Shown piece after piece: positions 10,073 through 10,298 of a stretch of 15,828 nucleotides of DNA. Under the pieces are notes generated by a model. It ran no database searches, was not told the DNA's origin, and saw nothing but the letters and a program-made list of their open reading frames with translations. Both the position numbers and the translations under genes were made by a program. The number at the start of each line of letters is the position of its first letter. Position 1 is the stretch's first letter. Origin of the DNA: a virus (taxonomy: Duplodnaviria; Heunggongvirae; Uroviricota; Caudoviricetes); IMG/VR virus record IMGVR_UViG_2700989170_000009; one strand, given 5' to 3'.

Positions 10073-10298
10073 TTGTCTACCTTATCTACCTTAGTGGCCC
10101 TCATGCCAGTAATGGCGCTGCTTTCAGCGGGGTAGAGTGCTTTTATCCACTATCTACCCCGTGTCTACCTCCCTGTCTGATTCAGGTAAAATCAGGTAGA
10201 GAGGGTAGATAGTGGGTAGACAGTAAAAAAAGGCTATCTACCTAACTTAATGCACTGAATTAAATGTATTTTTCTTTACTCAGGTAGACAGGGTAGAC
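10073..10298. repeat. Iteron-type replication origin: about 12 copies of GGTAGA(C) / GTCTACC in both orientations, with AT-rich tracts
   Basis: ttgtctacc-ttatctacc tandem at 10073-10090; tatctacc at 10151-10158, gtgtctacc at 10161-10169; ggtaga(c) at 10196, 10205, 10215, 10283, 10292; A/T-rich runs at 10223-10232 and 10301-10320. Lies immediately downstream of the primase-helicase gene. Confidence 0.65.

Follow-up and report, generated by a model that had tools for sequence, protein, structure and literature searches.

A probable replication origin beside the initiator gene of an enterobacterial phage-inducible chromosomal island and its likeness to the phage P4 replicon

Introduction

The prototype phage-inducible chromosomal island (PICI) of Gram-negative bacteria is EcCICFT073 of Escherichia coli CFT073, located at ycfD-phoQ (Fillol-Salom et al. 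2018, PMC6092414). The region 3′ of its pri gene has been described as iterons around an AT-rich stretch, and a temperature-sensitive plasmid with the pri-ori segment gave colonies at the restrictive temperature, while delta-pri and delta-ori versions were impaired (PMC6092414). A closely related 288-bp region follows the initiator gene in the IMG/VR virus record IMGVR_UViG_2700989170_000009 (Caudoviricetes), a stretch of 15,828 bp that was analysed as a whole and is called the window below. The best explanation of this region (10026-10313) is that it is the vegetative replication origin of a PICI, with a probability of about 0.9.

Two other satellite systems provide the frame for comparison. 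In the staphylococcal pathogenicity islands (SaPIs) SaPIbov1, SaPI1 and SaPI5, the origins consist of 6-12 penta- or hexanucleotide iterons immediately downstream of rep and of an AT-rich region, which is roughly central and has on either side two or more iterons, those of the two sides pointing in opposite directions; Rep is a self-loading superfamily 3 (SF3) helicase with a C-terminal winged-helix domain (PMC9371898). In phage P4, as annotated in GenBank NC_001609, the cis-required region crr lies 46 bp past the stop codon of the alpha gene (4.3-4.6 kb) and ori lies at 9.3 kb, 4.7 kb from crr; the origin-binding domain of alpha is represented by structure 1KA8.

The repeat array and its tested homologue

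The hexamer GGTAGA occurs 13 times in the window, where 3.7 copies are expected (200 dinucleotide shuffles, 0/200 reaching 13), and 11 of these copies fall within 10076-10297, six on the plus strand (starts at 10131, 10195, 10204, 10215, 10283 and 10292) and five on the minus strand (10076, 10085, 10153, 10164 and 10237). At the rate found outside the intergenic region, 0.03 copies would be expected in such a span of 222 bp, and 20,000 shuffles of the 288-bp intergenic region gave a mean of 0.13 and a maximum of 3. The stray copies lie at 488 (in phoQ) and at 15074 (inside int), the latter being the sole extra copy in the island, which has no second cluster. When oriented, the iterons share the consensus RGGTAGAYAG (R-GGTAGA-Y-A-G), in which position 7 is C in 5/11, T in 4/11 and G in 2/11 copies and position 8 is A in 10/11. 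Adjacent iterons are spaced 9 or 11 bp, and the complete array, read from the initiator stop codon onwards, has the string '> 9 > 46 < 22 > 11 > 9 > 31 < 11 < 22 > 46 < 9 <'. About a dozen GGTAGA(C)/GTCTACC copies in both orientations had been seen in the initial annotation, in agreement with this count. The A/T tracts that it had noted between the repeats are also present, the largest being the 40-bp spacer 10243-10282 (77.5% A+T), whose 30-mer nearest-neighbour energy of -31.7 makes it about three standard deviations less stable than the window mean (-41.6, standard deviation 3.3). Its placement of the cluster immediately downstream of the gene is correct because the first iteron begins 16 bp past the stop codon (10314-10316).

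Support for an origin comes from the experimentally tested island. The gap after pri in EcCICFT073 is identical to that of the window at 273 of 288 positions (94.8%); none of the 15 differences falls inside a hexamer core, and all 11 cores are intact. The published primers, once mapped on the window, place the end of the delta-ori clone at 10310 and that of the pri-ori clone at ~10012, so that the deleted 'ori' (~10012-10309) spans the whole repeat cluster. The replication experiment proposed in the initial annotation has thus in effect been done on a near-identical copy. Recognition of a PICI and SaPI origin layout was likewise justified: the arrangement agrees with what has been published for SaPIs, the island belongs to the PICIs and the tested homologue is close. 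The repeat cluster is therefore a confirmed feature of an already known kind, being ~95% identical to the tested origin.

Conservation beyond this pair was followed in 83 initiator loci and the DNA downstream of each (80 loci from IMG/VR, the others from genomes of Serratia, Morganella and Shigella; L numbers are handles for loci), in which the identity to the window initiator, Pri, ranges from 99% down to 52%. A word-indexed protein search with Pri gave near-identical Shigella and E. coli proteins only, and the IMG/VR loci were used for diversity; a scan of species-representative genomes contributed three loci, those of Serratia and Morganella being informative. In all 83 relatives, a short repeat is present 8-12 times in the first 330 bp past the stop codon. 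Written on the gene strand, this repeat is TGTCTAC in 68 loci (the window type), TGTTCAT in 7, TATACAT in 5 and TGTTCAC in 3. The four types differ mutually at one to three positions, and orientation and spacing are kept across them. Among 46 distinct GGTAGA-type origins, the entropy is 0.215 bits in the hexamer cores and 0.817 in the other origin columns (Mann-Whitney p = 1e-12).

The initiator and the reading of the iterons

The initiator (Pri or Pri-Rep) combines an N-terminal part of ~145 residues of unknown fold, a D5_N and SF3 helicase core, and a C-terminal winged-helix domain. Its residues 141-577 align with residues 326-762 of P4 alpha at 40% identity over 438 residues (BLASTP, E 2e-109). 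In searches of PDB structures, the helicase core matches SaPI5 PriRep (7OLA, E 6.5e-16) and residues 486-577 match the origin-binding domain of alpha (1KA8, E 7e-7). The protein is 100% identical to one from Shigella flexneri SFBU1023 and to hundreds of Shigella records. Pri of EcCICFT073 is 90% identical to it, nearly identical from residue 150 and divergent over the N-terminal ~145 residues.

The designation 'primase-helicase' in the initial annotation stands for its second half, to which an origin-binding domain is to be added, and fails for its first: no primase domain is found in the initiator by Pfam, BLASTP against alpha aligns nothing before residue 141, and hhalign gives the N-terminal profile a probability of 0.07% against the P4 and Morganella primase domains. 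Because no such domain is detectable, 'primase' is an unsupported annotation label. Hypervariability marks the N-terminal domain, which is only 42-46% identical between proteins with helicase cores 84-96% identical; it has no similarity to the Toprim primase domain of P4 or Morganella, and reassorts independently of the C-terminal domain. It could recruit a host primase, helicase or single-strand-binding protein, or a helper-phage factor.

The protein that reads the repeats can be sought in the way the repeats vary. In loci of the window type, iteron position 8 is A (82-100% of copies) where the C-terminal domain carries V-N-x-F-G, and G (78-93%) where it carries V-A-x-F-S; this pairing holds in 65/65 loci and on at least four N-terminal backgrounds. 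Helices of this domain were placed by alignment with 1KA8, by the winged-helix description in PMC2777425 and by a single-sequence AlphaFold model of low confidence (pLDDT 58). In this placement, residues N542 and G545, which track position 8 in the same 65 loci, would stand at the start of the predicted third (recognition) helix. Proteins associated with TGTTCAT and TATACAT are 97-99% identical; the two groups can be told apart at only 4 of 587 aligned columns, every one of them within the last 90 residues and two of the four in the predicted wing. The P4 iteron TGTTCAC is used by the Serratia relative (L005), whose C-terminal domain visibly approaches that of P4, and also by the relatives L074 and L075.

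Neighbouring genes do not track the iteron type. The upstream DUF4222 protein is 75-95% identical to that of the window in both iteron subtypes, the downstream 92-aa protein varies from 53 to 100% identity within one subtype, and the GGTAGA-type origins of L068-L071 precede unrelated genes (17-20% identity). The 92-aa protein (PHROG 1231) is not the iteron reader. From these sequence comparisons, the C-terminal domain (residues 478-582) is proposed for this role; a change made in step across ~11 copies would be hard to explain without a common reader.

These elements suggest the following course of events. A helper phage would induce the island and cause its excision. The initiator would then bind the 11 iterons through its C-terminal winged-helix domain, assemble as an SF3 helicase ring and open the AT-rich spacer, after which host enzymes would take over replication. 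Priming would probably be ensured by host DnaG, since no primase domain was found in the initiator. The array would operate as two modules, one resembling ori1 of P4 and the other, together with the A/T block beyond it, resembling crr (Table 1).

Table 1. Features of the intergenic region and of the surrounding island (window coordinates)
Feature	Position	Strand	Remarks
Whole intergenic region, putative replication origin, 288 bp	10026..10313	.	94.8% identity to EcCICFT073 pri-ori gap; published delta-ori maps to ~10012-10309
Ori1-like module (first)	10195..10297	.	Layout as P4 ori1
Iteron pair (10283, 10292; 9 bp apart), first two after the stop codon	10283..10297	+	Conserved in 46 distinct GGTAGA-type origins; corresponds to first P4 ori1 pair, alpha orientation
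AT-rich spacer, candidate DNA-unwinding element, 40 bp	10243..10282	.	Flanked by oppositely oriented iterons; same place as 34-bp AT-rich spacer in P4 ori1
Single iteron, opposite in orientation to the pair across the AT-rich spacer	10237..10242	-	Exact GGTAGA
Iteron triplet (10195, 10204, 10215; spaced 9 and 11 bp), end of ori1-like module	10195..10220	+	Exact GGTAGA
Degenerate iteron GGTAAA at dyad centre	10185..10190	+	One-mismatch match
Crr-like module (second)	10076..10169	.	Looser likeness to P4 crr unit
Iteron pair (10153, 10164; 11 bp apart), start of crr-like module	10153..10169	-	Exact GGTAGA
DnaA-box-like site TTATCCACT	10143..10151	.	8/9 match to consensus TTATCCACA
Single iteron in crr-like module	10131..10136	+	Exact GGTAGA
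Conserved non-iteron block, gene strand CTGAAAGCnGCGCCATTACTGG	10107..10130	.	Conservation equal to iteron cores in 46 distinct origins
Terminal iteron pair (10076, 10085; 9 bp apart)	10076..10090	-	Corresponds to terminal inverted 9-bp-apart pair of each P4 crr unit
Conserved A/T block by last iteron pair, gene strand TCAAAACTTTTTAAAC (also given AAAACTTTTTAAAC)	10044..10059	.	Nearly invariant in 46 origins
Next gene, 92 aa	9747..10025	-	PHROG 1231; distal boundary of origin
Initiator gene ('Pri'/'Pri-Rep'), 582 aa	10314..12062	-	Pfam D5_N, DUF5906, Pox_D5; PHROG 864
Coding region of C-terminal origin-binding domain, residues 478-582	10317..10631	-	1KA8 match
N-terminal domain, residues 1-145	11628-12062	-	No Pfam family
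Large terminase	2553-4214	-	
P27-type small terminase	4198-4509	-	
Portal	5930-7141	-	
Prohead protease	7210-7773	-	
HK97-type major capsid gene, nonsense codon	7816-8970, stop 8143-8145	-	Compared with E. coli RM6927 gene
Two small genes between capsid and 582-aa initiator genes; DUF4222 gene listed after the initiator		-	
AlpA-like gene, 62 aa	14036-14224	-	
Tyrosine integrase	14599-15828	-	

Apart from the iterons, two blocks of the region are conserved. The first (10107-10130) has a counterpart, GCGTCATTACTGG, in the TGTTCAC-type locus L074, and CATTACTG is found between the ori1 iterons of P4 (L087, ~9339-9352); it is a possible host-factor site. The second, the A/T block 10044-10059, also occurs in loci with other iteron types and, as AAAAAACTTTTTT, after each crr unit of P4; a bend, a host-factor site or a second unwinding element are conceivable roles for it. 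The DnaA-box-like site was considered as a host-factor site and rejected: it is present only in the closest relatives, and because other GGTAGA-type origins do not have it, it is probably a chance match or dispensable. Scans of the gene strand of the repeat region for promoters and for terminators gave nothing above chance, and no terminator was found between pri and the array.

Alternative explanations

The most serious competitor, though an unlikely one, is that only part of the array initiates, the second module (10076-10169) being a crr-like enhancer or a copy-number or pairing site that binds the initiator, DNA opening taking place elsewhere. Its 46-bp spacer is G+C-rich where that of the first module is AT-rich, and it ends like the crr units of P4, in an inverted 9-bp-apart pair followed by AAAACTTTTT. 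Moreover, the modules suggest themselves as separable units because their order is reversed in six loci (L068-L071, L074, L075), where the crr-like module comes ahead of the ori1-like one with ~90 bp between them, and where the downstream genes are unrelated to the 92-aa gene of the window. Such a division of labour is a refinement of the origin explanation, not a substitute for it; both modules are lost in the published deletion, and the similarity of the second module to crr is looser than that of the first to ori1.

It is improbable that the repeats are operator sites for a regulator of the downstream packaging genes (AlpA, PerC, the 92-aa protein or the DUF4222 protein). Short inverted-repeat arrays are typical of operators, and this one immediately precedes the ribosome-binding site and start of the next gene, with no terminator separating it from pri; yet the gene strand offers no promoter-like site. 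The repeat type follows the C-terminal domain of the initiator and is independent of the DUF4222 and downstream proteins, the same repeats preceding unrelated genes in L068-L071. In addition, the same layout is annotated as an origin in P4 ori1, and deletion of the homologous region impaired plasmid maintenance (PMC6092414).

A structured RNA or single-stranded DNA hairpin (terminator, small RNA or single-strand origin) with the repeats as stem arms has hardly any likelihood. The repeat-region strand does fold better than shuffled sequence (-41 kcal/mol, z = -4.9), and inverted repeats of 51 and 22 nt (I1, I2) set the dyad centre of the cluster. This symmetry is fully accounted for by inverted copies of one 10-bp motif; a stem would have no need of the many direct repeats, and the two arms have 46-bp spacers with no sequence relationship to each other. 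Nothing resembling a terminator was found, and the Rfam search of the region returned sub-threshold matches to microRNA hairpins only (22-24 bits against gathering scores of 59-150), attributed to the dyad symmetry. Just as slight is the chance of a packaging (cos/pac) site or of integrase arm-type sites: terminase small subunits and integrases do bind short repeated sites, but the terminase genes (2553-4509) are 6 kb off, neither the integrase gene nor the ends of the island are close, the same origin module accompanies two unrelated packaging modules, and the island has just one other GGTAGA (15074, inside int).

Several points weigh against the origin reading itself or parts of it. Deletion of ori in EcCICFT073 lowered colony numbers without abolishing them (PMC6092414), and the experimental support is confined to that copy, so that the function of the window copy is put forward from sequence likeness. 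The AT-rich spacer is among the least stable 30-mers, yet it is not the least stable stretch of the window. The lack of a detected primase domain in the initiator leaves the priming step unexplained. Co-variation between the domain and the iterons could partly reflect physical linkage, since the two are less than 400 bp apart and would be inherited together. Likeness to crr is looser than to ori1, the P4 unit being '< 12 > 63 < 9 <' and the window unit '< 11 < 22 > 46 < 9 <'. Finally, with its capsid gene interrupted by a nonsense codon, this island may have become unable to go through its full life cycle.

The island and its hosts

The island lies at the phoQ-roxA/ycfD site, the same as that of EcCICFT073; phoQ occupies 1-1461 on the plus strand of the window, whereas every gene of the island is on the minus strand. 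Best matches were E. coli chromosomes with the same island between phoQ and roxA (ycfD), annotated with integrase, helix-turn-helix regulator, icd-like genes, DUF4222, primase, single-strand-binding protein and PerC, followed by the complete set of HK97-type head and terminase genes, those for tail and lysis being absent. An integrase, an AlpA-type regulator, one-directional transcription, a PICI attachment site and the lack of tail and lysis genes are the PICI hallmarks found here. Gene content of this kind is that of capsid-forming PICIs (preprint 10.1101/2022.09.08.507074; PMC10085698), and the element is a capsid-forming PICI in a Shigella/E. coli chromosome, this subtype being assigned because head and packaging genes are present. 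Compared with the intact 385-aa gene of E. coli RM6927, its capsid gene shows 98% identity and has an in-frame stop in place of W276; capsid building by this copy has therefore probably been lost, while the copy may still replicate, its replication module appearing intact from the sequence.

The pri-ori module, conserved at 95-98% identity, accompanies head modules of two kinds that are unrelated to each other. A set of HK97-type capsid, protease, portal and terminase genes is present in the window and in RM6927 (L002), both capsid-forming PICIs, and a lambda-like capsid with decoration protein in CFT073 (L003) and E. coli UID2309220036 (L001), both ordinary PICIs. The 288-bp origin occurs in 564 of 5426 complete E. 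coli genomes, in up to 4 copies per genome, and carries no annotated feature in RefSeq records among the matches listed. For the window, the significance is thus mainly one of annotation: a satellite origin present in about a tenth of complete E. coli genomes is left unannotated. Record CP088587.1 (L088, 'plasmid pD17EC0246-3', 32.5 kb) was considered as evidence of episomal replication and discarded because chromosomal genes (clcB, mlc, mdtIJ, pntAB) surround a capsid-forming PICI that is integrated among them; the record is apparently no plasmid but a chromosomal contig filed under the wrong type.

Two stretches of the window call for caution in gene calling. Runs of N at 4553-4595, 5607-5723 and 7235-7324 touch the head-tail connector, the HNH gene and the portal-protease junction, and open reading frame calls near them are unreliable because masked sequence interrupts the packaging module. 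A 248-aa open reading frame at 13232-13978 (minus strand), between the AlpA-like and icd-like genes, overlaps plus-strand frames and has no match in Pfam, PHROGs, NCBIfam or PADLOC; relatives hold small icd-like, BRO-N and YlcI/YnfO genes at this stretch, and the frame may be spurious or an accessory gene.

Comparison with known replicons

The origin of EcCICFT073 is the nearest described counterpart, with the same chromosomal site, the same 288-bp gap after the pri stop codon and 11 GGTAGA cores in the same places. A difference lies in the cargo, a lambda-like capsid and decoration set in EcCICFT073 and the HK97-type head module of a capsid-forming island in the window.

Resemblance to SaPI origins is one of architecture. 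The window also has hexamer cores (11, from 16 bp after the stop codon) and a Rep of SF3 and winged-helix type (matches to 7OLA and 1KA8). Iterons of opposite orientation flank its AT-rich spacer, but this spacer stands off-centre, inside the first module, dividing the copies into 2 and 9, whereas the SaPI region lies in the middle of the array; beyond the window spacer, only the immediately adjacent copy is inverted, and three direct iterons follow. Sequence similarity is detectable in the helicase core only and the iteron sequences are unrelated. Unlike SaPI5 PriRep, which has a primase domain, the window initiator has none detected.

Iteron plasmid origins (those of RepA, pi and TrfA) use mostly direct repeats of ~17-22 bp, conserved DnaA boxes and a non-helicase WH1-WH2 Rep that needs DnaA and DnaB loading. 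They share with the window repeated initiator sites beside an AT-rich unwinding element and an initiator encoded alongside. They differ in that the window repeats are of ~10 bp and in both orientations, the initiator is itself a helicase, and the single DnaA-box-like site is not conserved.

P4, with its alpha protein, ori1 and crr, is the closest mechanistic relative, rather than the SaPIs. Binding of type I iterons by alpha and its enzymatic activities were reportedly described by Ziegelin and colleagues in 1993 and 1995 and by Yeo and colleagues in 2002; the GenBank annotation of P4 and PMC2777425 are further sources for these statements. The two initiators are homologous over both the helicase and the origin-binding domains, at the 40% identity given above. 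The first module of the window ('> 9 > 46 < 22 > 11 > 9 >') is almost superimposable on P4 ori1 ('> 10 > 45 < 20 > 11 > 10 >'), with a pair, an AT-rich spacer (34 bp in P4), one inverted copy and a triplet in the same succession. Like the window array, crr of P4 stands directly 3′ of the initiator gene, and the second module resembles it by its terminal inverted pair and the AAAACTTTTT after it. The PICI origin can thus be described as a head-to-head fusion of two modules, one of ori1 type and one of crr type; the ori1 half of this description is well supported, and the crr half is one that we infer.

The type I iteron of P4, TGTTCACC, and that of the window, TGTCTACC, differ at 2/8 positions. 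P4 has ori1 and two crr units 4.7 kb apart, and the window has one of each, head to head, within 222 bp. The P4 alpha protein has a 325-aa DnaG-type primase domain, which the window initiator is without; a terminator separates alpha from crr in P4 and none was found in the window, and the type 2 repeats of P4 are absent from the window.

The odds are about even for a broader proposition, of which the literature searched contains no statement: that the origins of enterobacterial PICIs and capsid-forming PICIs are, rather than a layout in their own right, a compact P4 replicon (fused ori1-like and crr-like modules and an alpha-like gene minus its primase), in which two to four substitutions, located in the recognition helix and the wing of the origin-binding domain, have on several occasions given the iterons a new specificity, the ~11 iterons changing in step. 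If true, this would create separate replicon specificity groups and could let several satellites share a cell without cross-talk. Within the same literature, the collinearity with P4, the in-step change of iterons and domain, and the absent primase domain may be modestly new. The natural initiator/iteron variant pairs, two to four residues and one or two bases apart, are material for studies of specificity change and for building mutually compatible replicons. One origin module serves ordinary and capsid-forming PICIs and is collinear with that of P4, which links the replication machinery of satellite families usually treated as unrelated.

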